Shown here piece by piece: positions 32,819-55,335 of a stretch of 64,000 bases of DNA. The position numbers were made by a program, and so were the translations under genes. Source of the stretch: a virus; the IMG/VR virus record IMGVR_UViG_3300030098_007301, positions 99,966 to 163,965 of that record. The stretch is one strand, 5' to 3'. Positions within the stretch are counted from its first letter, which is position 1. Each line of letters starts with the position of its first letter. Below the pieces are notes generated by a model. That model saw only the letters and a list, made by a program, of their open reading frames with translations, was not told the origin of the DNA and made no database searches.

Positions 32819-33038
32819 TTAGTTTGCCCAGCCAATCAATTTCCTCGCTGTACTCAATCTCCGCGAGCGTGTTCTGGACGTTGCTCAACTTCTCCTCCAT
32901 GTCCGCGATGCGTTTCTGAAGGTACTTAACGTGGTCGTAATCATTGCCCCACGACTCGGCGAGGGCTTGAAGGGTTCCACGTACGCTGGCAATCTCTGCC
33001 CCTTGTTTGCTGATGTTCTCTCTCGTTTCTAGTCTCAT
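32811..33038 (-). CDS. Early small coiled-coil protein
   Basis: Own promoter 10 nt upstream; GTTATGAG start. Confidence 0.7.
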   Translation of the reverse strand: MRLETRENISKQGAEIASVRGTLQALAESWGNDYDHVKYLQKRIADMEEKLSNVQNTLAEIEYSEEIDWLGKLNE

Positions 33039-33048
33039 AACTGGAAAA

Positions 33049-33077
33049 ATAGTAACTTAAATCTCAGACTTTTGCAA
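33049..33077 (-). promoter_or_regulatory. Early sigma70-type promoter
   Basis: TTGCAA-17-TACTAT-10 nt-ATG. Confidence 0.65.
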
Positions 33078-33100
33078 GTAAAAAATAAAAAAAAGGTGAC

Positions 33101-33313
33101 CTATTCGGCCACCATGCTCAGGATTCTATCCCAGCGGAATCGCTTCCACTCTCCGGTCTCGACGCACTTGCCGGTGATTCCCGCACAATCGTCGTTCTCC
33201 TCGCGGTTCGCGAACTGCTCCTCAATCTCGACGCTGTAGTTGAACGCCAAGCCCTTGAGATTATCCCGTCCTTCGTGGACGGCCGGTCTGTAATAAATAA
33301 GGAACTTCCTCAT
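33101..33313 (-). CDS. WYL-like/SH3-fold small protein
   Basis: ITGKCVETGEWKRFRWDRILSM resembles the WYL C...R.FR.DRI motif. Confidence 0.5.
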   Translation of the reverse strand: MRKFLIYYRPAVHEGRDNLKGLAFNYSVEIEEQFANREENDDCAGITGKCVETGEWKRFRWDRILSMVAE

Positions 33314-33322
33314 AACGCAAAT

Positions 33323-33599: not shown

Positions 33600-34642
33600 G
33601 CTTTATTCCTCTTCCTGCTTGCTGATGCCAAACGTCCAGCCCACTTGATGCTACCGTCGGCCTTGGTGGGCATCGCACCCACCAAGTCAGGGCGATCAAT
33701 ACGTAGGTATTCGCTGCGCTCCTCGTCCGTTGACCAACTAGTAGCCACGGTCTCAAGGTATTCGGCATCTTCAATTGATAACTTGGCCACGCGCTTGACT
33801 GCGCGGGTGACGCTTGACGTATCAGCCTTCTTGACGTAATCGGTGCTGATAGCTGGGGTAATCTCTGCCACCTTGCCGTAGGTAGTCGCCAAGGTCTGAA
33901 AAGAAAACCCAAAGGTCATCATTGGCGCACCAGAACCATAATAGGTATGTTGGCTGATGAGCCTGAGATTTTTCAGCTTGGCCTTCTTCAGAATTTTTTG
34001 GAAATCCTTAATGGTCTGCTCCGTCTTGGCCACCGCGTCCTTGCGAGCTTTCTCGGTGACATAACCCTTCATCTTCCTGCGCCAGTTGGCATCGAACGTG
34101 AAGAATATCAACCCTGACTCGTTGAGGTTACGCGCAAACACTTGAAGGGCGTTCCTGACTTCGCTGGTTGGTGAGCCGCAAAAGTCTAGCCAAACAAAAT
34201 CGGCGTTGAACTCCCCGCCTCGCCCCGTCTCCTTGAGCTTGTTGCCGATAGGCAACCCCGCGTACTTGTTGTGCATCATTTCGTTAATGCACCCGTAAAC
34301 GTAATCCGTTTGAACTCTCACGCCGTTAATATCGCGAGAGTCGGCAACGTATTCCCCCTGACGCTTTACGCCTTTTCTGTCCCCAACGGGAACGGATGAA
34401 TCGTCGTAAACCTTGCGGTCATGCTCGACCACAATATTCAAAACCCGTCGAGTACCTGTGGCCTTCGCGGAGTGCAAAGGCGTTTCCTCAAACGAGTTTG
34501 TAAGGCCAGCCAATGAAACCGTGCGAACGGACGCTGGCTTGACCTTGGACATGAACTCAGCGACTTGCTGGTTGATGCTGGCGCGAACTACGCGCTTGTT
34601 TGCTTCCCGTAGGAACTTCTTCGTCTGCGTTGATCTACTCAT
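33596..34642 (-). CDS. Putative SAM-dependent methyltransferase-like protein
   Basis: SLAG, IVVEHD, ADFVWLDFCG and GLIFFTF in Rossmann methyltransferase order. Confidence 0.4.
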   Translation of the reverse strand: MSRSTQTKKFLREANKRVVRASINQQVAEFMSKVKPASVRTVSLAGLTNSFEETPLHSAKATGTRRVLNIVVEHDRKVYDDSSVPVGDRKGVKRQGEYVADSRDINGVRVQTDYVYGCINEMMHNKYAGLPIGNKLKETGRGGEFNADFVWLDFCGSPTSEVRNALQVFARNLNESGLIFFTFDANWRRKMKGYVTEKARKDAVAKTEQTIKDFQKILKKAKLKNLRLISQHTYYGSGAPMMTFGFSFQTLATTYGKVAEITPAISTDYVKKADTSSVTRAVKRVAKLSIEDAEYLETVATSWSTDEERSEYLRIDRPDLVGAMPTKADGSIKWAGRLASASRKRNKA

Positions 34643-34710
34643 AACAATGTTGCTTTCGCTTCCCTAAATATGCCTACCAATTCAAAAAATGTAAAGTATA
34701 AAAATAACTT

Positions 34711-35303: not shown

Positions 35304-35370
35304 CCCGCCCGGGTTTAAAAAAAAATTTAAAAATAAAATATAAAAAAATAAATCTTAGTTTCTGAAGTCG

Positions 35371-35447
35371 TAAGTCGTTGACTATCAATGACTTAGGCCT
35401 TCGGCGCCCTGCGCGCGGGTCGTAAGTCGTTGATTACCAGTGACTTA
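35371..35447. repeat. Paired 25-bp palindrome element 1 (IHF-consensus boxes)
   Basis: TAAGTCGTTGACTATCAATGACTTA, 27-bp GC-rich spacer, TAAGTCGTTGATTACCAGTGACTTA. Confidence 0.9.
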
Positions 35448-35538
35448 CGTATCTGAAAACCTCCATTTTTCGAAAGAACCGTGCCAAATTCGGGTAAAAA
35501 ATAAAAATAAAAAAAATGAAAAAAATCACTTTTTAGGC

Positions 35539-35566: not shown

Positions 35567-35576
35567 GTTCCCAGTT

Positions 35577-35732
35577 ATGAGAGATACGATTCAAGTTGAA
35601 GAGGTTTTCGAGTCCAGCACTAAGATGGTTTCCTGCACTTGTTGCGGGTGCGGCGAGCAGCACCACATCGATCACGATGAGGCCGCCGAATGGCACAATC
35701 TTGAAAATTTCATGTGCTGGGAGTGTGAATAA
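35577..35732 (+). CDS. 51-aa zinc-ribbon mini-protein (not in ORF track)
   Basis: MRDTIQVEEVF...CCGC...CWECE; own promoter. Confidence 0.7.
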   Translation: MRDTIQVEEVFESSTKMVSCTCCGCGEQHHIDHDEAAEWHNLENFMCWECE

Positions 35733-35734
35733 AA

Positions 35735-35869
35735 ATGAGTGATAATATAAAATCTTTTGGTGGTGCGCTGCTACGTCAAGCGCAGATGAAAGAATGGAAA
35801 GCAATCCCTGAAGCCGAACGCCCCACATGGGAGCAGTTTAAGCGCGGATTAAAAAAGAAAAAAAAGTGA
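35735..35869 (+). CDS. 44-aa mini-protein (not in ORF track)
   Basis: MSDNIKSFGGALLRQ...KKKKK; fills the gap between a stop and the next promoter. Confidence 0.5.
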   Translation: MSDNIKSFGGALLRQAQMKEWKAIPEAERPTWEQFKRGLKKKKK

Positions 35870-35879
35870 GTTTTAAGGG

Positions 35880-35907
35880 TTGACTTTTTCCAAAAATCTG
35901 ATAAGAT
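35880..35907 (+). promoter_or_regulatory. Early sigma70-type promoter
   Basis: TTGACT-16-TAAGAT-10 nt-ATG. Confidence 0.7.
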
Positions 35908-35917
35908 AATTCCCGTT

Positions 35918-36151
35918 ATGAGAGATATGAAAACCTACACGTTGTATTGGAAAAACGAAGACACCAACAGGGTGAGCAGCAAGGACTTCACCAGCGAACC
36001 CGGTGTTGACCATTCGGCAATGGATAAGGCTTTGGAGCTGGCCCAAGAGGCTGACACCAATATGTGGCCTTGGATTCTAGAAGAGGACGGTTGCACCGTT
36101 GCCCACGGTTGGGGCGGTGATATGCTGGGAGCCTACCGTTTCCAAGGTTAA
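35918..36151 (+). CDS. Early small acidic protein (MRD family)
   Basis: GTTATGAGAGAT start with own promoter. Confidence 0.75.
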   Translation: MRDMKTYTLYWKNEDTNRVSSKDFTSEPGVDHSAMDKALELAQEADTNMWPWILEEDGCTVAHGWGGDMLGAYRFQG

Positions 36152-36160
36152 AAATAGTTG

Positions 36161-36188
36161 TTGACTTTTCCTGAAATTCTGATATACT
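36161..36188 (+). promoter_or_regulatory. Early sigma70-type promoter
   Basis: TTGACT-16-TATACT-10 nt-ATG. Confidence 0.75.
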
Positions 36189-36198
36189 TTTTTCCGTT

Positions 36199-36393
36199 AT
36201 GAGAGATACGTTTGATAACTTAAGTTGCGAAGAGGTTTTCGAGTTGAACGCGGTTTGTGGCCAATGGCAACAAGAGGCCACTGAGTACATCAAGCCCGCC
36301 CAAAAAGCCGAGCTTGCGGAGCGCCAGCGCAAGGCCGCCGCCGAGATGTTTTGGTTCATCCAAAAACGCCGCCAGCAAGGGGATTGGTTCTAA
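36199..36393 (+). CDS. Early small protein with SCEEVFELNA motif
   Basis: MRD start, own promoter, motif shared with 38988 and 39527. Confidence 0.75.
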   Translation: MRDTFDNLSCEEVFELNAVCGQWQQEATEYIKPAQKAELAERQRKAAAEMFWFIQKRRQQGDWF

Positions 36394-36409
36394 TAAAAAA
36401 ACCAAGTCA

Positions 36410-36486
36410 TAAGTCGTTGAACATCAATGACTTAGGGCCTCAGGGGAGGGCGCCCAAAACGTAAGTCGTTGTCAATCAGTGACTTA
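36410..36486. repeat. Paired palindrome element 2
   Basis: TAAGTCGTTGAACATCAATGACTTA-27-TAAGTCGTTGTCAATCAGTGACTTA. Confidence 0.9.
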
Positions 36487-36597
36487 CGACTTTAAAAATC
36501 AAAAAAAATGACTTTTTAGGATGGGTTTCCGTGCCAACCTGTGCGAATTATTAAAAAAACTTTTTTGAATAAAAATAAAAAAAATGACTTTTTAGGG

Positions 36598-36625
36598 TTG
36601 CAATTTTCTGAAGCTGTGATATACT
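36598..36625 (+). promoter_or_regulatory. Early sigma70-type promoter
   Basis: TTGCAA-16-TATACT-10 nt-ATG. Confidence 0.7.
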
Positions 36626-36635
36626 GTTTTGCGTT

Positions 36636-36806
36636 ATGAGGGAAACCTTAAAAGAAAACAAAAAGTTGGTCTGCCAAGTATGTCAGAGAGAAGACGGAGC
36701 CAAGAGCGAATGGGAAGGCACAATCGAAGTTTGGGAGTGGTGGAATCCATGCGACCACGGTACAATCTGCGACGAATGCCACGAAGACATGATCGACGAA
36801 AGGTAA
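36636..36806 (+). CDS. 56-aa zinc-finger mini-protein (not in ORF track)
   Basis: MRETLKENKKLVCQVC...ICDECHED; own promoter. Confidence 0.7.
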   Translation: MRETLKENKKLVCQVCQREDGAKSEWEGTIEVWEWWNPCDHGTICDECHEDMIDER

Positions 36807-36825
36807 AAAAAGTTAAAAATAGTTG

Positions 36826-36854
36826 TTGACTTTTCACCTAAAGTATGATTTAAT
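36826..36854 (+). promoter_or_regulatory. Early sigma70-type promoter
   Basis: TTGACT-17-TTTAAT-10 nt-ATG. Confidence 0.65.
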
Positions 36855-36864
36855 AGACGGAGTT

Positions 36865-37017
36865 ATGAGAGACAAGAAGCAAATAAAAGAAGCGGCCAAG
36901 AAGGTTTGGAAAAACTATTCTATAATGACACTCAACGGTAACACCTACTTCATCAACGAAGACCGGAAACACCGCCGCCGTCAACTGTCTGGATACTATG
37001 GAAAAAATCCAAAATAG
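36865..37017 (+). CDS. Early small basic protein (MRD family)
   Basis: Start MRDKKQ, 10 nt after the -10 box. Confidence 0.65.
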   Translation: MRDKKQIKEAAKKVWKNYSIMTLNGNTYFINEDRKHRRRQLSGYYGKNPK

Positions 37018-37020
37018 TTG

Positions 37021-37048
37021 TTGACTTTTCAAAAAATTCTGATATACT
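37021..37048 (+). promoter_or_regulatory. Early sigma70-type promoter
   Basis: TTGACT-16-TATACT-10 nt-ATG. Confidence 0.75.
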
Positions 37049-37058
37049 AATTCCTGTT

Positions 37059-37340
37059 ATGAGAGATACGAATAAATTCTTAAACGCCACCTTCAAAGTG
37101 GAGAAGAACCCAACCTACACCGGCAATCACTACATGGCCCGTGTCAACCGAGTGTTGAGCAACACTTACCCGCTTGGTACAACTGAGCAGGAGATGATCG
37201 ACAAGTATCACAATCGCGTCGTGTTGGAAAAAGACATCGACGGAAACAAAGTGCTAGCCGGTGACATTCACCGTGTCGTTGAGGTTTCCTTTTACGAGGA
37301 TTCGATTGCCGATAATGACTTGAGAATCACACACGACTAA
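37059..37340 (+). CDS. Early hypothetical protein (MRD family)
   Basis: 93 aa with own promoter. Confidence 0.75.
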   Translation: MRDTNKFLNATFKVEKNPTYTGNHYMARVNRVLSNTYPLGTTEQEMIDKYHNRVVLEKDIDGNKVLAGDIHRVVEVSFYEDSIADNDLRITHD

Positions 37341-37393
37341 TGGCCGCGCTTACCTCAACAATAATTTTTTTAATACTTTTAACACTTTTCGTG

Positions 37394-37422
37394 TTGACTT
37401 ACCCGCAAAACTGATATATACT
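37394..37422 (+). promoter_or_regulatory. Early sigma70-type promoter
   Basis: TTGACT-17-TATACT-10 nt-ATG. Confidence 0.75.
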
Positions 37423-37432
37423 TTTTTCTGTT

Positions 37433-37651
37433 ATGAGAATTATAGACTACGCAAACGAAAACAAAATAGCCGAAGCCAAAGTCACAATCGCTGAAACTGA
37501 AGGCTCTCTGAATCACCTTGCAAACTCCACATACTTAACCGTTGAGGAAATGCGCGAAACCTGCAAGCGGCTTGCCGAACAACTGACCGAATCACGGGCG
37601 AAGATACACAACGCCATGCACGGTGAGCCAACCTCAATGGACGGAGAATAA
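37433..37651 (+). CDS. Early small helical protein
   Basis: 72 aa with own promoter. Confidence 0.7.
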   Translation: MRIIDYANENKIAEAKVTIAETEGSLNHLANSTYLTVEEMRETCKRLAEQLTESRAKIHNAMHGEPTSMDGE

Positions 37652-37655
37652 AAAA

Positions 37656-38138
37656 ATGAAAAAAATAATAATAACACTTTGCTTGGTTCCGGTTGCCTTA
37701 CAACTTTTTTTAATCGCTAACTCTGTTTATGCTTACGCTCACACACACAACAACAAAAGCCTCACCCGTGAGGAAAAAATCGTTGCCATCACTATACTGG
37801 CAGAAGCCAGAGGGGAAGGGGAAAAAGGAATGTATGCGGTGGGTGCTGTCATTGCTCAACGAGCATTTGAAAGAAAACAAACGCCCACAGAGGTATGCCT
37901 TAAAAAATGGCAATTTAGTTGTTGGAACGGCAAAAGATTAAAAGACCTTGAGCATTTGTTGAAAGTGCCACAGGCAAAATACGCCATCACCGTTGCAAAG
38001 AATGTGAAAACTTTAAGCCGCGAATATGTTGGATATGCTAACCACTATCATGCAACTTGGATGAAAAAACTACCTTACTGGGCCAAAGGTCAAAAGCCCG
38101 TCAAGGTTATAGGTCAACACGCTTTTTACAAACTATGA
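37656..38138 (+). CDS. SleB/Hydrolase_2 family cell wall hydrolase with N-terminal signal/anchor
   Basis: TILAEARGEG..GM.AV..VI..R, QFSCWN, HYHA, PYWA and IG.HAFY motifs. Confidence 0.85.
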   Translation: MKKIIITLCLVPVALQLFLIANSVYAYAHTHNNKSLTREEKIVAITILAEARGEGEKGMYAVGAVIAQRAFERKQTPTEVCLKKWQFSCWNGKRLKDLEHLLKVPQAKYAITVAKNVKTLSREYVGYANHYHATWMKKLPYWAKGQKPVKVIGQHAFYKL

Positions 38139-38320
38139 AAACCTTTAATCCATTTGATAAGCCAGAACTCCGTGAAAAATTTCAGCTAAAGCCTCGTGCC
38201 GTTGACACTATGGGAACCTTTGCTATGCCTGAGATTTTTAACTGGGACAAAAAAATCGGTGCGCCATTCTCCAATAAATCAAAATCAACCAACAGGCAAA
38301 AACCAAGAAAAAGAAAATGA
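38135..38320 (+). CDS. Small basic protein
   Basis: ATGA-coupled; ends KSTNRQKPRKRK. Confidence 0.5.
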   Translation: MKTFNPFDKPELREKFQLKPRAVDTMGTFAMPEIFNWDKKIGAPFSNKSKSTNRQKPRKRK

Positions 38321-38481
38321 AACAAAAAGCTAAAAATAGAAAACGGAAATTTACCACAGCAACCCAAAAGAAAAAGATTTATATGGATGCTAATTGCGAA
38401 ATCCCTGTCTCGGCGACCTACTTCGGCCCGCATACCCTAAAAGGACTCGGAAGGAAAAACTACGAAGGAGGGAATTACTAG
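38317..38481 (+). CDS. 54-aa basic mini-protein (not in ORF track)
   Basis: ATGA-coupled MKQKAKNRKRKF... Confidence 0.45.
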   Translation: MKQKAKNRKRKFTTATQKKKIYMDANCEIPVSATYFGPHTLKGLGRKNYEGGNY

Positions 38482-38483
38482 AA

Positions 38484-38630
38484 ATGAGCAGCAAGCCAAC
38501 TGGAGGCATGGGAGAGGGTAGTAGCTCCTGCATGGTTACTACAAAATGGACAACGGCAACGCGGCCAGCTTATAAAGGCAAACATCGAAAAGCAAAAGCT
38601 ACTAATCGACAAAAGCCAAAAAAGAGATAA
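38484..38630 (+). CDS. 48-aa basic mini-protein
   Basis: Starts 2 nt after the previous stop; ends KATNRQKPKKR. Confidence 0.45.
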   Translation: MSSKPTGGMGEGSSSCMVTTKWTTATRPAYKGKHRKAKATNRQKPKKR

Positions 38631-38703
38631 TTTTAACAAGGTATATAGTGTGCGGCAATGGGGAAAGCCGTCTTGTTATAAAAGACCCCAACTCTCATAA
38701 CAC

Positions 38704-38744
38704 CGCCCCGTCGAGACCTCGCATGCTCGGCGGGGCAATTTTTT
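38704..38744 (+). terminator. Intrinsic terminator
   Basis: GCCCCGTCGAG...CTCGGCGGGGC then T-run. Confidence 0.7.
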
Positions 38745-38781
38745 AATGTCAAGAAAAAAAGAATAAGTTTTTTCTATGTCG

Positions 38782-38858
38782 TAAGTTACTGAGTATCAAG
38801 GACTTAGGGCCTCGGCGCCCTGCGCGCAAGCGCTAAGTCACTGAATACCAATGACTTA
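38782..38858. repeat. Paired palindrome element 3
   Basis: TAAGTTACTGAGTATCAAGGACTTA-27-TAAGTCACTGAATACCAATGACTTA. Confidence 0.9.
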
Positions 38859-38949
38859 CGTTTTTAAAAGTGTTGTTTTTCAATAGGTTTTCATGCCAAG
38901 TTGGCGTAAAAATTAAAAATAAAAAAAATAAAAAAGTGAGTTTTTTCTG

Positions 38950-38977
38950 TTGACTTTTTCTGAGATTGTGATATGCT
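38950..38977 (+). promoter_or_regulatory. Early sigma70-type promoter
   Basis: TTGACT-16-TATGCT-10 nt-ATG. Confidence 0.7.
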
Positions 38978-38987
38978 CATTTCTGTT

Positions 38988-39167
38988 ATGAGAGATATGA
39001 TTACTTGTGAGGAGGTTTTCGGTTTGAACGCGGACGCTGTGGCTGCCCACGGCGAGGACGCATGGGTCGCCGGTGTGACCGTTGCCAACGGTTTCGATGG
39101 CGTCGAGGACGAGGCCGATGATCGGTGCTGGTGTAAGTTTTTTGAGTCATGCGCGGAATGCGCTTGA
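38988..39167 (+). CDS. Early acidic mini-protein with TCEEVFGLNA motif and C-terminal Cys cluster
   Basis: MRDMITCEEVF...CWC....CAEC. Confidence 0.7.
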   Translation: MRDMITCEEVFGLNADAVAAHGEDAWVAGVTVANGFDGVEDEADDRCWCKFFESCAECA

Positions 39168-39191
39168 CTTTTTTTTAAATTCTGGTAGACT
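39164..39191 (+). promoter_or_regulatory. Early sigma70-type promoter
   Basis: TTGACT-16-TAGACT-9 nt-ATG. Confidence 0.7.
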
Positions 39192-39200
39192 TTTTTTGTT

Positions 39201-39470
39201 ATGAGAGATATGTTTGATAATATGTACACGGTTCGGATCGCCAACTCTGGCGATGAGGCTGGTTTCCCGCGTTCTCACGATGGTCTGGAAAAGGCCATCA
39301 TGTTGGCCTCGCGTGAGGGTACTGAGGTCACCTTTGATGGTGATGTCGTGTGGCCGGAGGAGGAGCCGGATATGGATGAGTCCATGGACGGGGATTTTGA
39401 TTCCGCGATGGCCAGTGCCGGTTTCGGCACGGATGAGGATTACGGCTGCTACGGTGGCGATGAGTGGTAA
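39201..39470 (+). CDS. Highly acidic early protein
   Basis: MRD start; DESMDGDFDSAMASAGFGTDEDYG tail. Confidence 0.75.
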   Translation: MRDMFDNMYTVRIANSGDEAGFPRSHDGLEKAIMLASREGTEVTFDGDVVWPEEEPDMDESMDGDFDSAMASAGFGTDEDYGCYGGDEW

Positions 39471-39488
39471 AAAACTCATTTTTTTTTG

Positions 39489-39516
39489 TTGACTTTTTTT
39501 CTGATTCTGTTACTCT
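39489..39516 (+). promoter_or_regulatory. Early sigma70-type promoter
   Basis: TTGACT-16-TACTCT-10 nt-ATG. Confidence 0.6.
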
Positions 39517-39526
39517 TTTTTCTGTT

Positions 39527-39721
39527 ATGGGAATTATGAAATCATTATTCATGGAACTCTCCTGCGAGGAGGAGTTTGAGTTGAACGCGTGGTGTGATGA
39601 GCGTCGCGAGGCGGACATTGCCGCGCAGGACGCGGACATGGTCGCGGAGGAGATGGCCCGCCAGTCCGACGCGCTGATCGCCGAGGACGCCGCCCTCGAC
39701 CTGCTGATCGCCGCCGGTTAA
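39527..39721 (+). CDS. Early acidic mini-protein with SCEEEFELNA motif
   Basis: GTTATG start 10 nt after the -10 box. Confidence 0.7.
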   Translation: MGIMKSLFMELSCEEEFELNAWCDERREADIAAQDADMVAEEMARQSDALIAEDAALDLLIAAG

Positions 39722-39740
39722 TCAAAAACCGTGCCAAGTC

Positions 39741-39764
39741 ACCCCGCCAAGGCGGGGTTTTTTT
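39741..39764 (+). terminator. Intrinsic terminator
   Basis: ACCCCGCC-AA-GGCGGGGT then T-run. Confidence 0.75.
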
Positions 39765-39793
39765 ATTTTTTATTTTTTAGGATTTTGAAGTCG

Positions 39794-39869
39794 TAAGTCG
39801 TTGATAGTCAAGGACTTAGGGCCGCGGGCCTACCCCACCGTGCGTAAGTGACTGATAGTCAATGACTTA
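39794..39869. repeat. Paired palindrome element 4
   Basis: TAAGTCGTTGATAGTCAAGGACTTA-26-TAAGTGACTGATAGTCAATGACTTA. Confidence 0.9.
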
Positions 39870-39969
39870 CGTGTTTTTTTATTAATTTTTTTAAAAAAAT
39901 AATTTTAGAAAATTTTCAGAATATATTAAGAAGTTATTATTTATTATTTATTTAATCCTTATTTACTTC

Positions 39970-40149
39970 TTATTTAATCAGAATAAAATCAGAAATTTCT
40001 GTTACATGAATTCTTTTTTTCTTACACTTATCGCATGAGCCTTTACGCCATGTACCGCATCTAATAGTTATTTGAGGATCGCGGCTTTCTTTTTTCGCTG
40101 ATCTTATTTCTTTGCGTTGGGCTTTTGTCCCGCACTCATAACAAATCAT
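39970..40149 (-). CDS. 59-aa zinc-finger mini-protein (not in ORF track)
   Basis: MICYECG...CDKCKK; ATGA-coupled to 40146..40361. Confidence 0.55.
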   Translation of the reverse strand: MICYECGTKAQRKEIRSAKKESRDPQITIRCGTWRKGSCDKCKKKRIHVTEISDFILIK

Positions 40150-40361
40150 GAGAATATTTGATTAACTTGCGATTCTAATTTTTTAATATGAGAAATTACC
40201 TCAACCTTGCCAGCGTGGTTCTTTTTCCAGCGGCGAAAGTCTCTTTTGATTTCCTGCTTCAAGCCGCGAACAATTATTTCGCGAGTCTTGACCGCATCAA
40301 GTTTAATGCTGCGGGTTGCCTTTCTTTTCTCTGCCTTTCTTTGGGCGTGCTTAGTTTTCAT
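40146..40361 (-). CDS. Basic small protein
   Basis: 71 aa ORF, ATG in AT-rich context. Confidence 0.55.
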   Translation of the reverse strand: MKTKHAQRKAEKRKATRSIKLDAVKTREIIVRGLKQEIKRDFRRWKKNHAGKVEVISHIKKLESQVNQIFS

Positions 40362-40374
40362 TGTTATAAATTAA

Positions 40375-40710
40375 AAATGGTGGTTGGATTATTTGTATAC
40401 CAACACCTTTTCAGTTCCCGAGAAACAAAGTTTCTTATCAACCTACTTCGGACTCACCCACGTTTTCGCGCTGCCACTTGGCCGTTGTTACTTCCGCAGG
40501 TGCTACGTTACCCCCTTGGGAGGGATTATTCCGTCACACCGCCTCTCCCCGTCGAGAGAGGAAATTATTGAGTTGCTGCCGCACCACCAGCAGTAAAACG
40601 GGCGCGAGACAATCATGATCAAAAAACTCGCAGGGGTCTTTAACTCCGTCAACTCAAATTTTCAAAAAGCGTCTGGGTTGTTTTAAGTCAGCCCAGTCTG
40701 ACCCCCTTTT
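40375..40710. ncRNA. Candidate structured non-coding RNA
   Basis: About 440-nt intergenic gap with at least six stems, some nested; family not recognised. Confidence 0.3.
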
Positions 40711-40807
40711 TACTATGAAAGAAGAAACATAACATTGTTAGCTAACCTCCACTAACAGGGCACAAGATGAACACATACAAATAAATCCCCCGAAGGGAAA
40801 AGTTATC

Positions 40808-41077
40808 TTACTGCACTTGGGCAGCAGCGTCAACTACTTTTTTCGTCAACTGCGAATCTTGTAGTTTTTCGATAATCGTGTTAAGCATTACGCGCTGCTT
40901 GGCAACGGTTAGCTTGGTTTGATTAACGTTGAGATCCTCGGCCAACTCAACAAAGCCTAAAGCATCATTAATTTGCCTCAGTTCTGTGATAGCCTTGCTG
41001 CGAGTATCTTCGCGACGTTGAATCTCTGCTCTCCCCGCCTTCGTGCGGGCCTGTAGGTAATGCGCTGGAATATCCAT
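40808..41077 (-). CDS. Early helical protein
   Basis: Start MDIPAHY, 10 nt after the -10 box. Confidence 0.7.
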   Translation of the reverse strand: MDIPAHYLQARTKAGRAEIQRREDTRSKAITELRQINDALGFVELAEDLNVNQTKLTVAKQRVMLNTIIEKLQDSQLTKKVVDAAAQVQ

Positions 41078-41087
41078 CACTTGAAAT

Positions 41088-41116
41088 AGTATAGAACAGT
41101 CGGGGTACGCTGTCAA
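41088..41116 (-). promoter_or_regulatory. Early sigma70-type promoter
   Basis: TTGACA-17-TATACT-10 nt-ATG. Confidence 0.8.
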
Positions 41117-41532
41117 GCGTAATAAATGTTCATTGTCCCGTCTGCTGCTTTTTTGCAGACAACCCGTGCCGCTTTATGCAACGGCGTGCCCTTGTGGTAA
41201 TCCACAAACGTCTCAACCTTGTAGGGGTTGTAAAAGGCCTGTGCGAACTTGTATCCGCGCGGAAAATACTGAGCCTTATCAAAATTGACATCAGTAAACT
41301 TGCCGACCACATAAGCGTGGACGTTCTTCTGCTTCTCCTTCAGAACCCTTGCACGGCCTGCTGGCTGCACCCGAAACTTGCAATCGCGCAAGTCAACGCT
41401 GTCCGCATGACAATATAACTTGCCATCCTGTGCATCGCATATAGTCCAACACTTGTAAGTGAGGTTGCGATACACCTTGACGCGATCTGGAGCGATGCTC
41501 GGTGCGTCTTCCCATGAAATGTACTTCCTCAT
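41113..41532 (-). CDS. Conserved phage hypothetical protein
   Basis: VKVYRNL...F.V..AGR.RVLKEKQKNVHAYV.G...YNPYK...F pattern seen in many phages. Confidence 0.75.
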   Translation of the reverse strand: MRKYISWEDAPSIAPDRVKVYRNLTYKCWTICDAQDGKLYCHADSVDLRDCKFRVQPAGRARVLKEKQKNVHAYVVGKFTDVNFDKAQYFPRGYKFAQAFYNPYKVETFVDYHKGTPLHKAARVVCKKAADGTMNIYYA

Positions 41533-41542
41533 AACGGAGATA

Positions 41543-41571
41543 ATTAAATCATACTTTTCGCGTATGGTCAA
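41543..41571 (-). promoter_or_regulatory. Early sigma70-type promoter
   Basis: TTGACC-17-TTTAAT-10 nt-ATG. Confidence 0.65.
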
Positions 41572-41596
41572 CCCCTTTTTTTTATTTTTTTTCCTG

Positions 41597-41625
41597 TTGA
41601 CAAGTTACCCCGCATAGTGCATACT
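41597..41625 (+). promoter_or_regulatory. Early sigma70-type promoter (divergent)
   Basis: TTGACA-17-CATACT-10 nt-ATG. Confidence 0.7.
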
Positions 41626-41635
41626 TTTCTTGGTT

Positions 41636-41890
41636 ATGAAAATGAAAGACATTAAAAACGGTTCAATATACTTCAACGTCAAAAAGAATCGCCCTGAGCG
41701 CGTAATATCTAATAACTTTAGTAAGTCGCGAGTCGTAACTGAATACCACAATAGAAATCAGACTGCGGTTCCTGCTAGATATTTGCGTTTAGCTAATAAT
41801 ATCGAAGTAGAAAACTACTTGGATAAAAAAGGAAACTTTATCACTTCTTTCTTTGGGAAATTATTCACCCCGAAGAAGGTGAACGCTTGA
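41636..41890 (+). CDS. Early small protein (SH3-like beta pattern)
   Basis: 84 aa with own promoter. Confidence 0.65.
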   Translation: MKMKDIKNGSIYFNVKKNRPERVISNNFSKSRVVTEYHNRNQTAVPARYLRLANNIEVENYLDKKGNFITSFFGKLFTPKKVNA

Positions 41891-42013
41891 GGGGGTTGAA
41901 TTACCTTTAAGCGTCCCGCTTTGGATTGTTTCGCCTTGGTTCTGCGTTTCCCAAGGTTTTTTTGCCAAAGCGGGAGAATCTCCTGAGACAGTTATACGTC
42001 TCCTCATAACACT

Positions 42014-42041
42014 AACCCGCGGCCTACGCCGCGGGTTTTTT
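42014..42041 (+). terminator. Intrinsic terminator
   Basis: AACCCGCGGC-CTAC-GCCGCGGGTT then T-run. Confidence 0.8.
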
Positions 42042-42047
42042 ATGTCG

Positions 42048-42125
42048 TAAGTGCTTGATGGTCAGTGACTTAAGGGCGCCGCGCCCCCCCGCGCCGGACC
42101 TAAGTCGTTGGTAATCAGTGACTTA
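42048..42125. repeat. Paired palindrome element 5
   Basis: TAAGTGCTTGATGGTCAGTGACTTA-28-TAAGTCGTTGGTAATCAGTGACTTA. Confidence 0.9.
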
Positions 42126-42277
42126 CGTTTTTAAAAAGTCATTTTTTTCGAAAGAATCGTGCCAAGTTCGGACTAAATAAAAAAATATTTTTTTTTAAAT
42201 AATGATGATTTAGGGGTTGCATTACTTCCGAAAGTGTGAGATGATTAATTCGTTCTGAGGAAGAACTAAAAATTGTT

Positions 42278-43171
42278 ATGGCTAGAAATACAAGACCAAC
42301 AAGCGACCAGTTCGACTACAGAGTCGAGCAGTCGCCTCTGTATGACCGGCACGGCAAGCCCGTGAAGGTCGGGGGATCTCCCATTTTTGGGAATTTCCGC
42401 ACAGACAATAATGTCTGCTTGGGTACGTCTACTGAGGCGTACGAGATCGTCAACAACGATTCAGTTGTTGAAGTTGTTGAAGATGCCTTCGGTGCTGCCG
42501 GTATGGGCGACTTCGAGCGCGAAATTGTAGTTGCACGCGATGGTGCGCGTTTCTACGGGGTTTACGACTTCCCGCAAGTCGAACGTCAAGTTGCCAATGT
42601 CGGCGATGTTGTTTCCCTACGTCTAACCCTCAACAACTCCTTCGACCGGAGTTGCGGTTTGAACTGGGCCATCGGGCTGCTCCGCAAGGTTTGCTCCAAT
42701 GGTATGTGTTCGCTGGTGGCCGACACCAACGTCACCAAAAAGCACAGCTCAAAGCTGGATCTGTCCTTCATCAAGGAAGGAATCAACGCATCGGTCGAAA
42801 AGTTCGACGCGTCTATTGAGGCTTTTAAAAACCTCAGCAATCGTGAGATCACCCAAAAAGAGGGCGGTCTTATTCTGGACAACCTCGCCATCAAGAAGGT
42901 GCTTTCCGAGTCGCTTCGGGACTCCATCCAGATGGTCTGGGATTCGCCTTCCTTCGGGGAGGATCAAGGTCGCAACCTGTACAACCTGTACAACGCGACC
43001 ACGGAACACCTCACCCGCGAGGTGCAACCGACTCGGTTTGAGTACGCCAACCGCGTAAACCGCAACGTGCTGACGCACTTGTCGCGGGCGAGACAGGACG
43101 CGAACCACTTCGCCAAGCTGACGCTGCCGACTCCTGAGAAGGAGAAGGCCGCCGAGGTCGTGGCTCTGTAA
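42278..43171 (+). CDS. DUF932 family phage/plasmid protein
   Basis: RTD...LG.....Y.IV.N, L.NSFD.S, R.VCSNG, KH and NLYNLYNA.TE motifs. Confidence 0.8.
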   Translation: MARNTRPTSDQFDYRVEQSPLYDRHGKPVKVGGSPIFGNFRTDNNVCLGTSTEAYEIVNNDSVVEVVEDAFGAAGMGDFEREIVVARDGARFYGVYDFPQVERQVANVGDVVSLRLTLNNSFDRSCGLNWAIGLLRKVCSNGMCSLVADTNVTKKHSSKLDLSFIKEGINASVEKFDASIEAFKNLSNREITQKEGGLILDNLAIKKVLSESLRDSIQMVWDSPSFGEDQGRNLYNLYNATTEHLTREVQPTRFEYANRVNRNVLTHLSRARQDANHFAKLTLPTPEKEKAAEVVAL

Positions 43172-43184
43172 GGGGAACACCTGC

Positions 43185-43216
43185 AACCCCCGCCCGAAAG
43201 GGTGGGGGTTTTTTTT
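43185..43216 (+). terminator. Intrinsic terminator
   Basis: AACCCCCGCCC-GAAA-GGGTGGGGGTT then T-run. Confidence 0.8.
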
Positions 43217-43245
43217 ATCGAAAAAACTTGACAAAAAAAGAGGCC

Positions 43246-43322
43246 TAAGTGACTGACTATCAATGACTTAGGGGGCGCCGGGGTAGGCGCGCGGTCGTAA
43301 GTGCTTGGTATTCAATGACTTA
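43246..43322. repeat. Paired palindrome element 6
   Basis: TAAGTGACTGACTATCAATGACTTA-27-TAAGTGCTTGGTATTCAATGACTTA. Confidence 0.9.
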
Positions 43323-43350
43323 CGACTTGAAAAAACTCAGATTTAAAAAA

Positions 43351-43425
43351 TGGACGCGAGGGTCGGAATCGAACCGACGAATAAGACTTTTGCAGAGTCC
43401 CGCCTTACCACTTGGCTACCCCTCG
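43351..43425 (-). tRNA. tRNA-Cys (GCA)
   Basis: TAGCCAAGTGGTAAGGC D arm, GGACT-CTGCAAA-AGTCT anticodon arm, GTCGG-TTCGATT-CCGAC T arm, U73 and encoded CCA; one acceptor-stem mismatch. Confidence 0.85.
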
Positions 43426-43446
43426 CCGTTATTATTTGATTATTAT

Positions 43447-43668
43447 TTAATCAGACTTATTTGGGTTGGCAAAATTCTGATTATATAAACGCTCACTATT
43501 TGGTAACATATGCCTCCGGTCACATTTCTTACCTAAGACATTTACTTTTCTTTTGCAAAAAGTTAAAAAGCCTTTGCTTATTGCTGGTATCATTCCCTCT
43601 AGGCTCTTTTTAGAAACTCCAAAAGGTTCTTCGGTTTGGTGTGTATCGTTATTATTATCTCGTTGCAT
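43447..43668 (-). CDS. Hypothetical protein
   Basis: 73 aa overlapping the upstream stop. Confidence 0.4.
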   Translation of the reverse strand: MQRDNNNDTHQTEEPFGVSKKSLEGMIPAISKGFLTFCKRKVNVLGKKCDRRHMLPNSERLYNQNFANPNKSD

Positions 43669-44077
43669 CGTAATCTGTTAAATTTTCTGCTGTTATCTTT
43701 CCAAGGTTAAAAAAATCATATTTATTCTGCGTAACCAAAAAGGTCATTGGTTTGAACTCTGCTAATCTTAACTGTGCATACTCTCTGGCGAAGGGCATTA
43801 TGCCGCCCTTGGTTCCTTTATATAATGACAAGTTCCCTTCTTGCTTTATTGCATTAGCTGACATTTCGACTAATGAATCCTGCAATTTTTTTTGGGTAGT
43901 CCAAAAATATCCCAAATAAGGTTTTACATCTTCATTCGACCAAATTAAATCGTCACCCGATGTTGCTTTCCAATTCCAGAATCCCCAGTAGTGGTTAATA
44001 ATTTCATTTTTATCATCACCACGAATTCCGACTGCTATCTTTTTCTCTCCGTCTCTCTGTATAACGTATTCTATCAT
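43655..44077 (-). CDS. Hypothetical protein
   Basis: 140 aa from MIEYVIQ, Trp-rich. Confidence 0.6.
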   Translation of the reverse strand: MIEYVIQRDGEKKIAVGIRGDDKNEIINHYWGFWNWKATSGDDLIWSNEDVKPYLGYFWTTQKKLQDSLVEMSANAIKQEGNLSLYKGTKGGIMPFAREYAQLRLAEFKPMTFLVTQNKYDFFNLGKITAENLTDYDATR

Positions 44078-44148
44078 TCTCTCTCCTGTTGATAAATTAG
44101 CCAAAGACCCAAAGCGATCCCCACGACAAAAATCATTCCCTCCACAGG

Positions 44149-44895
44149 TCAAATCGTAGCTTTTGCATTGTATCCTGTAAAGCCTTTTTTCTTATTCGCG
44201 GAAAGGGCTTTGCTCGCTTCGCTCCCTGCTGGCTGACTGCCATGAATCACCAAAGCGAAATCATCCGAACCAGAGATAGCCAAGTCGTCGGTGTGGTCAA
44301 CGTCCAAGCCGAGAGCCTTTGCCTCATCTGTGGAGAAAAACACCTTTGCGCTTTTAACCATTGTCGAGGGAATTAAATTGTCATACTTTCCACCACGCGA
44401 GCAGGTAAAAACAAAATTCTTTGGCAAGCCGCCGTTTTTCTTAACATAGTCCAGTAAAAACTTGATGCTTTTAGTATAGGAATAAAAAACGATATTCGGA
44501 AAGAAACTCGCCACTTTCATCCATGCGTTGAAATAAAGCTGTGAAAAGTAATCGCCGCCAATGTGGACACGCAACGTGCCTCCCCGCCTCAATCCAGTTT
44601 CTTTTATACTGTTGACTATCAAATCAACAATCTGGCTAATGGTCTTACCCTTTAACAAATCAAAATTATCCCAACGTGTCTTGCGTACATTGGGCCGTCT
44701 GGCTTCGTCCATCGCAGCATAACAGCGAAACGCTTGGCCATCAACCGGCGTTTGTTTGTCGGTGATTTTGCCTGTCTCCCTGTGTGCAAAAGTCAAACAA
44801 CTTTTCGCGCCGGGGCAGGTGTGGCCGCTTGGTAACGAGTAGTGCCAAATGCCCTTGAGCTTGGCGTTTTCAAATGTGAATTTAAGTAGTCCCAT
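44149..44895 (-). CDS. Gene product 88-like (radical-SAM-like Cys motif) protein
   Basis: SLPSGHTCPGA..C...CYA, LRVHIGGDYFS..Y...W and FYSYTKS. Confidence 0.75.
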   Translation of the reverse strand: MGLLKFTFENAKLKGIWHYSLPSGHTCPGAKSCLTFAHRETGKITDKQTPVDGQAFRCYAAMDEARRPNVRKTRWDNFDLLKGKTISQIVDLIVNSIKETGLRRGGTLRVHIGGDYFSQLYFNAWMKVASFFPNIVFYSYTKSIKFLLDYVKKNGGLPKNFVFTCSRGGKYDNLIPSTMVKSAKVFFSTDEAKALGLDVDHTDDLAISGSDDFALVIHGSQPAGSEASKALSANKKKGFTGYNAKATI

Positions 44896-44906
44896 AACTG
44901 AAAAAA

Positions 44907-44935
44907 ATAATACTTTGTTTAATGGTTCAGGTCAA
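44907..44935 (-). promoter_or_regulatory. Early sigma70-type promoter
   Basis: TTGACC-17-TATTAT-11 nt-ATG. Confidence 0.65.
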
Positions 44936-45174
44936 CCAAAAAGTTTGTCCCATCCTTTCGGACTGGTTCCAGAAATTAGAAACTCCCTGTCGCCGCTATC
45001 TAATGACTTTAAAGCCATTATACTATTGGTTTGACGCATCCGAAAAAGTTCCGGCCCTTTAACTGTGACGCTATACTCCTCCCCCGTAACCCTGCACGGG
45101 CCGGTGAAAGTGTAAGTGTGGCCCTGCTCGCCGTATGCCTCCGTGTACTGTAGTTTGTCAATATACCTTTCCAT
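44932..45174 (-). CDS. Conserved small phage protein
   Basis: C.VTG...L...DREFLISG.SP..WD.LF motif. Confidence 0.7.
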   Translation of the reverse strand: MERYIDKLQYTEAYGEQGHTYTFTGPCRVTGEEYSVTVKGPELFRMRQTNSIMALKSLDSGDREFLISGTSPKGWDKLFG

Positions 45175-45184
45175 AACGCCGCTA

Positions 45185-45213
45185 ATCCTATGCTAAAAAA
45201 GGTTCCCCGTCAA
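45185..45213 (-). promoter_or_regulatory. Early sigma70-type promoter
   Basis: TTGACG-17-TAGGAT-10 nt-ATG. Confidence 0.7.
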
Positions 45214-45285
45214 CCCCAAAAAACATAAAAATAAAATTTTTATTTTACTTGACAAGCGATTTTTTTTGTGATTAAAAAAGGTACC

Positions 45286-45362
45286 TAAGTCGTTGATAAT
45301 CAGTGACTTAGGGGTCGCGCGCCCATGCTCCGCGTCGTAAGTCGTTGATAGTCAATGGGTTA
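45286..45362. repeat. Paired palindrome element 7
   Basis: TAAGTCGTTGATAATCAGTGACTTA-27-TAAGTCGTTGATAGTCAATGGGTTA. Confidence 0.9.
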
Positions 45363-45560
45363 CGCACTTTTTTTTCTTAATTTTTAAATTTTACTTTTTT
45401 AATGTTTTAATATCACTATATCTATCTATACCCTATACTTATACCTTTATTTGTTATTTATTTATTTCGGGTTCATTATTTCGCAATCACTTATTTGTAT
45501 TTTATTTATTTACTATTTATTATTTCGCAATTATTATTTGGCAATTTTATATTCGCAGGC

Positions 45561-45592
45561 AAAAAAAATCCCCCACTCTTTCGAGTGGGGGA
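45561..45592 (-). terminator. Intrinsic terminator
   Basis: TCCCCCACTC-GAAA-GAGTGGGGGA then T-run on the minus strand. Confidence 0.8.
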
Positions 45593-45627
45593 AGTAGTGT
45601 TATGAGGACTACTACTGAGGGGGGATT

Positions 45628-45831: not shown

Positions 45832-46809
45832 TTAACTCGGATTACCTTTTTCCAATAATTGTGGATTTTTTTCAAACATTTCTTTGGCGGCAACTGATAA
45901 CTGTCTACCATGAGTAGATACCTCAATAAAATTTAATTTTTGCAAGTATATCTCGGCATCAGATTGAATTGCTGCTCTAGTCATTTGTAATTTGGCGGCC
46001 AAATTATATAGACGCACCGTACCCTCACGATGTAAGGTTCTCAGGTAACGGAGTTCGGTCTTGTTCAAACCGTGCGGCATGATATCTAAAATCTGACATA
46101 ATTCCTGCCAATCAGATAATTTAAAAGTTTTAGTATTATTCGCCGCTACATAAGATTTGATATTAGTTGCCATCTTTTGAGCAGCACGACCATTACCCCG
46201 TAAAGCAGGAGCAATATGTTTTGATACGATATCACCAGAGAATTTAATCTTCTCAGTATTAAGTAGAAGTATCTGACCTAATTCGTCATAAGAATAATCA
46301 TCCAAATCAATCCTCTCCATCCTGTCAATCAAAGCATGGAATACTTCTTGTGGTTCAGTAGTGGCGAACAAAAATGTGAGTTTTTTAAAATCAATCTCAA
46401 TATCCGCGCCTTCATAACTAAAAGTATTAGAGTTATGTTTATTAGGATTGGTGATAGTAAGCAATGCCATTGTTACATCCTTGGGTAACATATGACACTC
46501 ATCGAATAAAAATGTAGCATCTTCATTCTGCATATAGGGAACCATAATCTGCTCAACAAATTGTCTGAGATTTTTAATCGTAGCGCAATTCAACTCGATG
46601 TAACGCTTGGGTTGCATCGTGTTAGGCATGACAAGATTCCGCGCAAATGCCCTTGCGAGCATCGTTTTACCCGCGCCCTTGGGCGCGGTAAGCATGATGT
46701 TAGGGACAATCCCTGTCCTTTCAAACGCTCTGATATAAAACTCAAACTTACGCTTGGCGGGATACTGTCCGATAACCGATGGAAACAATGTGTTAGATGT
46801 AGTAGTCAT
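45832..46809 (-). CDS. ruvB: RuvB-like AAA+ Holliday junction branch migration ATPase
   Basis: VIGQ, Walker A PKGAGKT, Walker B FLFDECH, ATT, DR, RG..R sensor, GL...E..YL and C-terminal E.YL....FI.....GR winged helix. Confidence 0.8.
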   Translation of the reverse strand: MTTTSNTLFPSVIGQYPAKRKFEFYIRAFERTGIVPNIMLTAPKGAGKTMLARAFARNLVMPNTMQPKRYIELNCATIKNLRQFVEQIMVPYMQNEDATFLFDECHMLPKDVTMALLTITNPNKHNSNTFSYEGADIEIDFKKLTFLFATTEPQEVFHALIDRMERIDLDDYSYDELGQILLLNTEKIKFSGDIVSKHIAPALRGNGRAAQKMATNIKSYVAANNTKTFKLSDWQELCQILDIMPHGLNKTELRYLRTLHREGTVRLYNLAAKLQMTRAAIQSDAEIYLQKLNFIEVSTHGRQLSVAAKEMFEKNPQLLEKGNPS

Positions 46810-46819
46810 AACTGAGTAG

Positions 46820-55210: not shown

Positions 55211-55335
55211 AAAAATAAAAAATATGTTTTGCGGTTAGTGTTTTTTAGCAGTCAAAAATCCTGCCAGAGACTTATATTGGACTAAATCACGAAAAACCCA
55301 AATGCTCTGACAGAATCATTGTTATGACTACTACA

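Follow-up and report, generated by a model that had tools for sequence, protein, structure and literature searches.

The selection of near-leaderless mRNAs and the way they are switched off are poorly understood, and the shut-off of phage early genes is usually ascribed to proteins or nucleases. Small RNAs that act in trans can derive from 3' UTRs, as in the cases of CpxQ, SroC and DapZ. Franch et al. are said to have described, in 1999, antisense RNAs with YUNR U-turn loops, and Arbiol et al., in 2010, reportedly described the PeSL cassettes of T4-type phages, recombination and regulatory units that combine a terminator with an early promoter. For icaR of Staphylococcus aureus it is established that base-pairing joins a motif in the 3' UTR to the initiation region of the transcript itself (PMC3868564), and the 5' and 3' UTRs of the Bacillus subtilis hbs mRNA likewise interact (PMC5737220). 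Start-codon accessibility governs leaderless initiation (PMC8459731). Cluster K mycobacteriophages carry start-associated sequences (SAS; PMC3203893).

The locus considered here lies in a stretch of 64,000 nt (the window; positions 99,966 to 163,965 of IMG/VR record IMGVR_UViG_3300030098_007301) from an uncultured marine phage family present in many ocean metagenomes. As in icaR, the 3' UTR contains a short motif rich in C and U that is complementary to the region where translation of the same mRNA begins, with blocked initiation and a double-stranded substrate as the expected consequences. In contrast to icaR, where the target is the leader Shine-Dalgarno sequence of one gene, the phage target would be the 5' terminus and AUG of a near-leaderless early class, and the phage motif, known here from sequence alone, is fixed beside the terminator and recurs at several units. 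The parallel with hbs is that the ends of one mRNA would pair, which there controls ribonuclease access; hbs, however, is one cellular gene whose leader is structured, and its pairing is protective rather than start-occluding.

Like the 3' UTR-derived small RNAs, the phage element places its putative seed just upstream of an intrinsic terminator, a stabilising 3' module, and the seed is predicted to be accessible (unpaired probability 0.55-0.98; 1-7 nt from the stem). It also opens with the YUNR word CUCA, as in fast-pairing antisense and anticodon loops. The differences from such small RNAs are that no internal promoter or processing site was found here in the DNA sequence, that the seed lies as close as 1-7 nt to the stem, and that the phage targets would be 5'-terminal starts rather than ribosome-binding sites. 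The early region resembles the PeSL arrangement in that terminator, spacer and promoter recur as a cassette around small genes, although PeSLs are not known to contain an anti-start motif. With SAS the phage word shares the character of a short asymmetric repeat tied to many non-structural gene starts, with rare copies in the opposite orientation, whereas SAS lie upstream of the start with a Shine-Dalgarno core and their inverted copies are not terminator-linked.

Results

The word GTTATGAG has 18 copies in the window where 1.7 are expected, with 0 of 100 shuffles giving as many as 18, and is the most over-represented 8-mer of the early region. Twelve copies follow a TTGAC-type -35 element and a TAnnnT -10 element and contain an ATG that opens an ORF; at these early gene starts (n=12) the word lies 7 nt 3' of the sigma70-type -10 box. 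The same spacing is found in 69 of 103 family promoters and places the predicted transcription start at or adjoining the G of the motif. As read from the DNA, these messages appear to be near-leaderless, with a -10 box at the distance of a transcription start, no ribosome-binding site, and an ATG 3 nt past the predicted +1. Starts that begin with GAGG form a minority class (25 of 103 family starts).

On the basis of promoter and motif together, nine promoter-proximal start motifs, predicted early mRNA 5' ends with a 3-nt leader, are assigned to the plus strand at 35574-39205, with the motif G at 35574, 35915, 36196, 36633, 36862, 37056, 37430, 38985 and 39198. Two others lie on the minus strand within 33034-33316 (33041 and 33316), and a further minus-strand motif, at 41528-41535 and of the GAGGA class, is the start motif of the L5 gp82-like gene. 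The ATG positions given for such starts in the preliminary description (35577, 35918, 36199, 36865, 37059, 38988 and 39201; 33313 and 41532) are all correct.

CTCATAAC, the exact complement of GTTATGAG, is found at three terminators in the window and always on the transcribed strand. The copies are where they had been reported, at 38694-38701 (+), 42003-42010 (+) and 45606-45599 (-), with AC following in all three. Downstream of each copy, at a distance of 3-6 nt and on the same strand, there is a strong intrinsic terminator (stems 38705-38736, 42014-42037 and 45592-45569), and the reported 10-nt complementarities to start motifs are exact. Element A (38692-38703, +; unpaired probability 0.58) ends a multi-promoter plus-strand early unit and is followed by terminator A (38705-38744, +), an 11-pair stem with 9 GC pairs and a T-run after it. 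Element B (42001-42012, +; unpaired probability 0.98) lies 3' of an 84-aa gene (41636-41890) and forms the linker between a hairpin (41987-42002) and terminator B (42014-42041, +). The predicted 5' end of its own unit, at 41633-41640 (+) behind a promoter at 41597-41625, carries the GTTATGAA variant.

Element C (45593-45616, -) is a small hairpin, with arms 45616-45611 and 45598-45593, whose loop holds the core, and is followed by terminator C (45561-45592, -). This hairpin had been noticed before; we find it again, and one relative has a compensatory change in its arms. The unit that ends at element C begins with the RuvB-like gene (predicted 5' end 46799-46812, -; promoter 46848-46820), at whose start a Thr-codon repeat is kept within the first 30 nt in 63 of 63 relatives. 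Immediately 5' of the core, 7 nt are complementary to codons 2-4 of this gene, and the 7+7 pairing proposed between element C and the RuvB-like start (46812-46799, -) holds without a mismatch. The own 5' end can pair with the element over 7-9 nt at all three window units.

The motif is predicted to be single-stranded, either in a linker that separates an upstream hairpin from that of the terminator or within a hairpin loop of 9-14 nt, and its predicted unpaired probability at 15 sites is 0.55-0.98 compared with about 0.5 for other 8-mers. A search of the elements with the Rfam 15 covariance models gave no match other than one at chance level (E=0.78) over terminator B, and the promoter scan of the window found no sigma70-like promoter inside the 3' UTRs that carry the elements.

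The count that the preliminary description had proposed, CATAAC shortly before terminators, gives 3 of 10 terminators in the window, where 0.07 are expected (P=5e-5), and 3 of 22 in a complete relative genome (P=4e-4). When the window and its relatives are taken together, CATAAC lies no more than 15 nt upstream of 18 of 74 distinct terminators (0.5 expected), while only 2 of 143 terminators have it in unrelated viral loci (Fisher P=9e-8), the control set being the unrelated phages returned by a general sigma70 promoter pattern scan of viral contigs. An unbiased ranking of the 6-mers upstream of terminators returns, as its top words, only sub-words of one motif, and the word in sense orientation has 0 copies before terminators. 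These statistics exclude a chance reading. At least five terminator hairpins, from different phages and unrelated to one another, have the motif 1-7 nt ahead of them. Within the window it marks only 3 of about 8 early terminators, so the element must be dispensable for some early units.

Among marine relatives that reach the UTR behind the RuvB-like operon (site C), the motif is present in 70 of 70, and the exact 8-mer is kept in 69 of the 70 orthologues. A block of 15 nt shows no or almost no variation across 53 distinct UTRs with a mean column identity of 57%, and the stem of terminator C differs between relatives, both arms changing together. At site A the UTR has diverged and the motif is an island of conservation; the stem of terminator A is invariant in five relatives. 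Judged from these alignments, the motif is under purifying selection at sites A and C. The 8-nt core is invariant in both partners, which leaves no compensatory change to score within it. In 9 of 12 independent elements a C precedes the core, a base that fits only the minority GAGG starts, so that with the majority start class only 8 bp can form. A flank-extension test showed no preference among the own 5' end, the next start and trans targets, and a second viral-contig scan with alignment yielded no further relatives.

Two analyses of site C were set aside. RNAalifold, applied to the 53-sequence alignment, in which indels misaligned the terminator columns, returned only a pairing of a C-run with a G-run and no covariation. 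An antiterminator, in which the C-run after the stop codon would pair with the 3' arm of the terminator, was dropped because the C-run stays constant while the arm changes.

The complementarity between element and start ends at the predicted +1, and the bases 3' of the motif match promoter DNA no better than chance; a complementarity that stops at the predicted 5' end of the transcript fits an RNA-RNA partner. Whole-transcript folds of five units pair the first 7-8 nt with the element at a probability of about 1, and in the element B unit the fold joins the own 5' end (41633-41640) with element B. When the element is shuffled, the 5' pairing falls to 0.25-0.65. These fold outcomes are all but built in by the complementarity. 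The core duplex has a calculated energy of -8 kcal/mol, which becomes -15 to -17 when the flanks are included, and an interaction of 8-10 bp might depend on a chaperone.

A related anti-start element, recognised by its complementarity, overlaps the stop codon of an upstream 280-aa gene (55321-55337, -). Its sequence is complementary to the start of the gene next downstream (54527-55210) and also, over 17 nt, to that of the RuvB-like gene. This element covaries with its partner in one relative, the cognate duplexes being at -17 and -22 and the crossed ones at -13.8 and -10.4. The covariation shows that the phage family maintains start-complementary elements.

The element also equals nucleotides 32-39 of the bacterial initiator tRNA (C32 U33 C34 A35 U36 A37 A38 C39), base by base with the published anticodon-loop sequence (PMC4611024), and GUUAUGAG is the full complement of that loop. 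Only Cys and Arg tRNA genes were found in the relatives, and no initiator tRNA.

As to the source, the sequencing runs that contain the window sequence are marine, and one metatranscriptome contained 7% of its words. The comparison with named phages gave no near DNA match, and the terminase has only 23-27% matches to Clostridium and Bacillus phages. The promoter-plus-start pattern has 63 single matches in bacterial genomes, where about 70 are expected (17 fixed bases, 596 Gb), and none is multi-copy; with a number near expectation, these matches give no clue to the host.

Discussion

We propose that the CTCATAAC-type tag is an anti-start element that acts at the RNA level by pairing with 5'-terminal GUUAUGAG, in cis, in trans or both, a reading whose chances we judge to be evenly balanced. 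In this view YCUCAUAAC would function as an RNA element at the 3' ends of some early transcription units. It is complementary, by Watson-Crick rules, to GUUAUGAG(R), the invariant 5' terminus of early mRNAs, whose predicted first base is the G three bases ahead of the AUG. When transcription has passed through the 3' end, the element would pair with this terminus, either on the same molecule (5'-3' closure), on other early mRNAs by way of terminator-anchored 3' fragments, or both. Pairing would bury the 5'-terminal AUG that has to be free for near-leaderless initiation, and would cover the 5' end as well. Early translation might then be largely restricted to the time of transcription, or be fed back on as 3' ends accumulate; it is from these sequence relations that we infer a possible role as a timer or shut-off.

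The identity with the initiator tRNA bears on how the shared starts arose. The preliminary description regarded the elements as terminator-anchored and as the reason why unrelated genes share first codons. The link between motif and terminator is upheld as real, strand-specific, conserved and predicted to be accessible, whereas the explanation of the shared codons is weak: conservation of the starts extends to about +15, beyond a pairing stretch of only 8-10 nt, and complementarity to the initiator tRNA is an independent reason. It may be extended tRNA pairing, and not the element, that gave rise to the shared start context. Extended pairing of this kind is known between a U at -1 and A37, where experiment supports a fourth base pair only (PMC10018350); the phage start context likewise has U at -1 and complements the anticodon loop, and here we infer mRNA-tRNA pairing over all eight loop positions. 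A more doubtful extension is that the element is a copy of the initiator tRNA loop and that 3' ends compete with fMet-tRNA for the near-leaderless starts, which would make a protein-free, class-wide timer limiting early translation to the period of transcription.

The tRNA identity could instead mean that the element is a mimic of the tRNAfMet anticodon loop, a ligand or decoy for a factor that recognises this loop (an anticodon nuclease, a synthetase or the ribosomal P site, for example), and not antisense at all. Besides the base-by-base match, some relatives have the motif as a loop of 9 nt with a closing G-C pair, and nucleotides at site C that cis pairing would bulge are nevertheless invariant. 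We think this very unlikely: there is no anticodon stem with three G-C pairs and no 7-nt loop, most copies lie in open linkers, and the loop identity is automatic if the start complements the tRNA and the element complements the start. A reading at the DNA level, in which a phage or host protein recognises the 8-bp duplex word at early starts and, inverted, at some unit ends, would draw on the over-representation of the word, on the L5 gp82-like and GP88 domains that the phage carries, and on a resemblance to operators and stoperators, with a role in shut-off, roadblock termination or looping. Mycobacteriophage L5 stoperators reuse asymmetric repressor sites at promoter and intergenic positions, as mentioned in the account of Cluster K (PMC3203893). 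Those protein sites, however, keep one orientation relative to transcription, while the orientation of the phage word is tied strictly to context, sense at starts and antisense before terminators. The common sequence ends at the predicted RNA 5' end, the motif falls in predicted single-stranded linkers or loops, and a candidate binding protein was not found, all of which makes a protein site improbable.

A different RNA-level function would be that of a read-through insulator, in which the partner of the element is the start motif of the following unit, 170-530 nt further downstream. Pairing would hide this start on transcripts that pass the terminator and leave it open only on RNAs from its own promoter. 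The adjacent downstream start is indeed what the covarying element at 55321-55337 would work on; for some elements the match to the next start extends over 10-12 nt, site A agrees at +9 both in the window and in G2, and L014 site 3178 matches over 12+3 nt. Yet the next start is mismatched at +9 in 6 of 11 sites and overall is matched no better than trans controls; sites B and C have next starts of GTTATGG type, with pairing limited to 6-7 nt. An insulator would have no need for tight placement 1-7 nt before the terminator stem, and we consider it unlikely. The prospect that the motifs are starts of opposite-strand mini-genes, raised in the preliminary description, came out negative, and together with decayed inverted copies of gene starts or chance it is hardly credible. 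Each motif, reversed, does give a start motif with an ATG, opening ORFs of 21, 48 and 42 codons in the window. These opposite-strand ORFs are short and not conserved, which is where mini-genes fail: across 15 sites they span 0-48 codons, several stopping after 0-3, orthologous sites differ (A: 21, 6 and 5 codons; B: 48 and 10; C: 42 and 5), and no promoter precedes them. Inverted relics would decay, yet the 8-mer is exact in almost every site C orthologue.

The design of the proposed anti-start element is compact, one 8-9 nt word standing at the 5' end of many unrelated early messages with its complement fixed beside terminators, and both the start word and its complement are conserved in abundant marine phages. 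If the proposal is correct, control from the 3' UTR to the initiation region would widen from single cellular genes to a whole temporal class, and the element would be a simple, portable module to control leaderless expression. The identity with the tRNA loop offers, in addition, a natural system in which to ask how far mRNA-tRNA pairing extends at initiation.

Genomic setting

The window is a portion of the genome of an uncultured marine phage, and the public runs that contain this stretch are marine metagenomes. Its gene content includes a terminase, a portal-like gene, a RuvB/clamp-loader-like AAA+ gene, DUF932, mycophage-type GP88 and L5 gp82 domains, one tRNA gene (tRNA-Cys) and, within the structural region, a single 3791-aa ORF at 3428-14803 (-). 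No near relative was found among the named phages compared with the window; its IMG/VR relatives are 145-170 kb in size, of which G1 (rated complete) and G2 were used as whole genomes. The regions upstream of the late genes are A/T-rich and without Shine-Dalgarno sequences.

A conserved motif precedes intrinsic terminators

The word CTCATAACAC, complementary to the start motif of the early genes, has exactly three copies in the window, each on the transcribed strand 3-6 nt 5' of a strong intrinsic terminator: at site A (core 38694-38701, +), site B (42003-42010, +) and site C (45606-45599, -). On re-checking, the positions given in the preliminary description were all correct. The motif-bearing terminators number 3 of 10 in the window (0.07 expected; P=5e-5), 3 of 22 in the complete G1 genome (0.14 expected; P=4e-4) and 2 of 14 in G2 (0.08 expected; P=3e-3). 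In a non-redundant family set, CATAAC lies within 15 nt of the stem at 18 of 74 terminators, against 2 of 143 in a control megabase of unrelated viral loci (Fisher P=9e-8), which confirms the enrichment that the preliminary description had asked for and excludes chance as the origin of the association. When the 6-mers that precede terminators were ranked without bias, only sub-words of one motif came out, and the sense word had zero occurrences there.

The motif is not part of a copied terminator, since the hairpins that follow it in different phages include at least five of unrelated sequence. The possibility that the motifs are the starts of opposite-strand mini-genes, named earlier as what would undo an RNA-level reading, also fails. 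Opposite-strand reading from the ATG gives only 0-48 codons, several readings ending after 0-3, and the lengths are unequal at orthologous sites (21, 6 and 5 codons at site A, 48 and 10 at B, 42 and 5 at C), with no promoter found upstream. The motif before the terminators is real, conserved and strand-specific, and acts at the RNA level in our reading.

Conservation is most evident where the surrounding sequence has diverged. In an alignment of site A from five relatives, TCATAAC and the terminator stem are almost all that the UTRs have in common. For site C, the RuvB-like protein served as query in a metagenome scan that yielded 80 marine relatives (78-95% identity); the element is kept in all 70 that reach the UTR, as the exact 8-mer in 69 and with T as its first base in the other, and the 7 bases directly 5' of it are identical in 68 of the 70. 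Mean column identity across the 53 distinct UTRs is 57%, yet a 15-nt block shows little or no variation in them, and the terminator arms covary. The small hairpin previously described around this element exists, and both of its arms show a compensatory change in one lineage. The predicted unpaired probability of the 8-mer is 0.55-0.98 at 15 sites, compared with a mean of about 0.5 for other 8-mers of the same UTRs; in minimum-energy folds the motif either links an upstream hairpin to the terminator or lies within a 9-14 nt loop.

Several neighbouring features were also observed. The stop codon of the 62-aa gene is immediately followed by a C-run (45617-45627, -, and orthologues) that is invariant in the 53 distinct UTRs and showed no covariation with the G-rich terminator arm in them. 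Some relatives carry a tandem pair of motif copies before one terminator (L011, minus strand, about 1975-2010; L014, 3160-3190), the first copy in L011 being the loop of a 5-bp hairpin. Upstream of element B, the 113-nt 3' UTR contains another hairpin of terminator type, with a T-run (41924-41960, +), so this unit may have two alternative end sites. After terminators there is a repeated intergenic module of two palindromes of about 25 nt (TAAGTC...GACTTA type) around a GC-rich core, continuing with an A/T-rich tract and then the next early promoter (35343-35458, 36382-36497, 38754-38869, 39780-39871, 42034-42127, 43229-43324 and 45269-45364). A structured intergenic region also holds a match to the whole manA RNA motif model (Rfam RF01745; 40373-40559, -; 47.1 bits, E=1.6e-9, below the gathering score of 55.2).

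Predicted pairing with mRNA 5' ends

The window holds 18 copies of the start motif GTTATGAG, against 1.7 expected. Twelve of these follow a TTGAC-type -35, a 16-17 nt spacer, a (TG)nTAnnnT -10 and 7 bases, and in these twelve the ATG of the motif is the ORF start. Family-wide, a -10 of this kind stands before 103 of 148 distinct copies, at a spacing of 7 nt in 69 of the 103, and conservation extends to about +15. Since the usual distance from the -10 and the pyrimidine-purine preference at -1/+1 locate the transcription start, we infer that transcription begins at the G of the motif or an adjacent base, leaving a 3-nt leader. The motif also opens a 348-aa ORF without a -10 box at the usual distance (34638-34645, -); such use at an internal start fits a role in initiation itself. 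The first codons of the RuvB-like gene form a Thr run, mostly of ACT (46799-46809, -, and relatives L226-L305), which has between about 2 and 8 copies in different relatives and resembles a slippage-prone repeat; other genes, e.g. 54527-55210, open similarly.

The 10-nt complements described between elements and starts were upheld, as was the 7+7 match of site C to the RuvB-like start (46812-46799, -). Complementarity is confined to bases predicted to be transcribed; the bases after the motif match promoter DNA no better than chance. The core alone gives a duplex energy of -8 kcal/mol, and inclusion of the flanks brings it to -15 to -17 kcal/mol. In folds of full-length transcripts, the first 7-8 nt pair with the element with a probability near 1 in five units. 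Pairing of the 5' end as such falls to 0.25-0.65 when the element is shuffled and stands at 0.4-0.8 in units lacking one. Because these predictions follow largely from the complementarity, we count them as consistency rather than proof. The likeliest role of the motif is that of an anti-start element acting on predicted near-leaderless early mRNAs.

Beyond the core, matches to the unit's own 5' end or to the next start reach no further than those to other starts, so that the element looks class-generic. At site C, the three bases predicted to bulge in the 7+7 pairing are invariant, and one relative has lost the G of its own start with the element unchanged; both observations point away from a purely cis role there. 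At site B of G1, T replaces C to give an 8-nt match to the unit's own GTTATGAA start, which points towards cis.

A second anti-start element of 17 nt (55337-55321, -) overlaps the upstream gene's stop codon; it complements the RuvB-like start and also the start of the next gene (54527-55210, -). In G1 its sequence is altered and matches the start of the adjacent downstream gene, which has altered with it; the energies are -17 and -22 kcal/mol for cognate duplexes, against -13.8 and -10.4 for crossed ones. In both folds the downstream start is covered by a long-range stem. The pair formed by this element and 54527-55210 (-) suggests translational coupling, with a stem that hides the start, and not trans control of the RuvB-like gene. 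Its covariation with the downstream start shows that the phage family keeps start-complementary elements under selection.

Known systems and the initiator tRNA

A YUNR word is a feature of fast-pairing loops, and the first bases of the element form one. An Rfam search of the elements gave no family matches. Among the nearest established mechanisms are the anti-SD motif of the icaR 3' UTR (PMC3868564), the hbs 5'/3' interaction (PMC5737220) and 3' UTR-derived sRNAs. A major factor in leaderless initiation is how accessible the start codon is (PMC8459731), and Cluster K mycobacteriophages have start-associated repeats of unknown function (PMC3203893).

Compared base by base with the published bacterial initiator tRNA sequence (PMC4611024), the element is identical to nucleotides 32-39, so that the start word complements the whole anticodon loop. 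There is experimental support for a pair between U at -1 and A37 (PMC10018350), and we infer pairing over the remainder of the loop. This complementarity would provide an independent reason why the start context is shared, in a host that makes no use of Shine-Dalgarno sequences.
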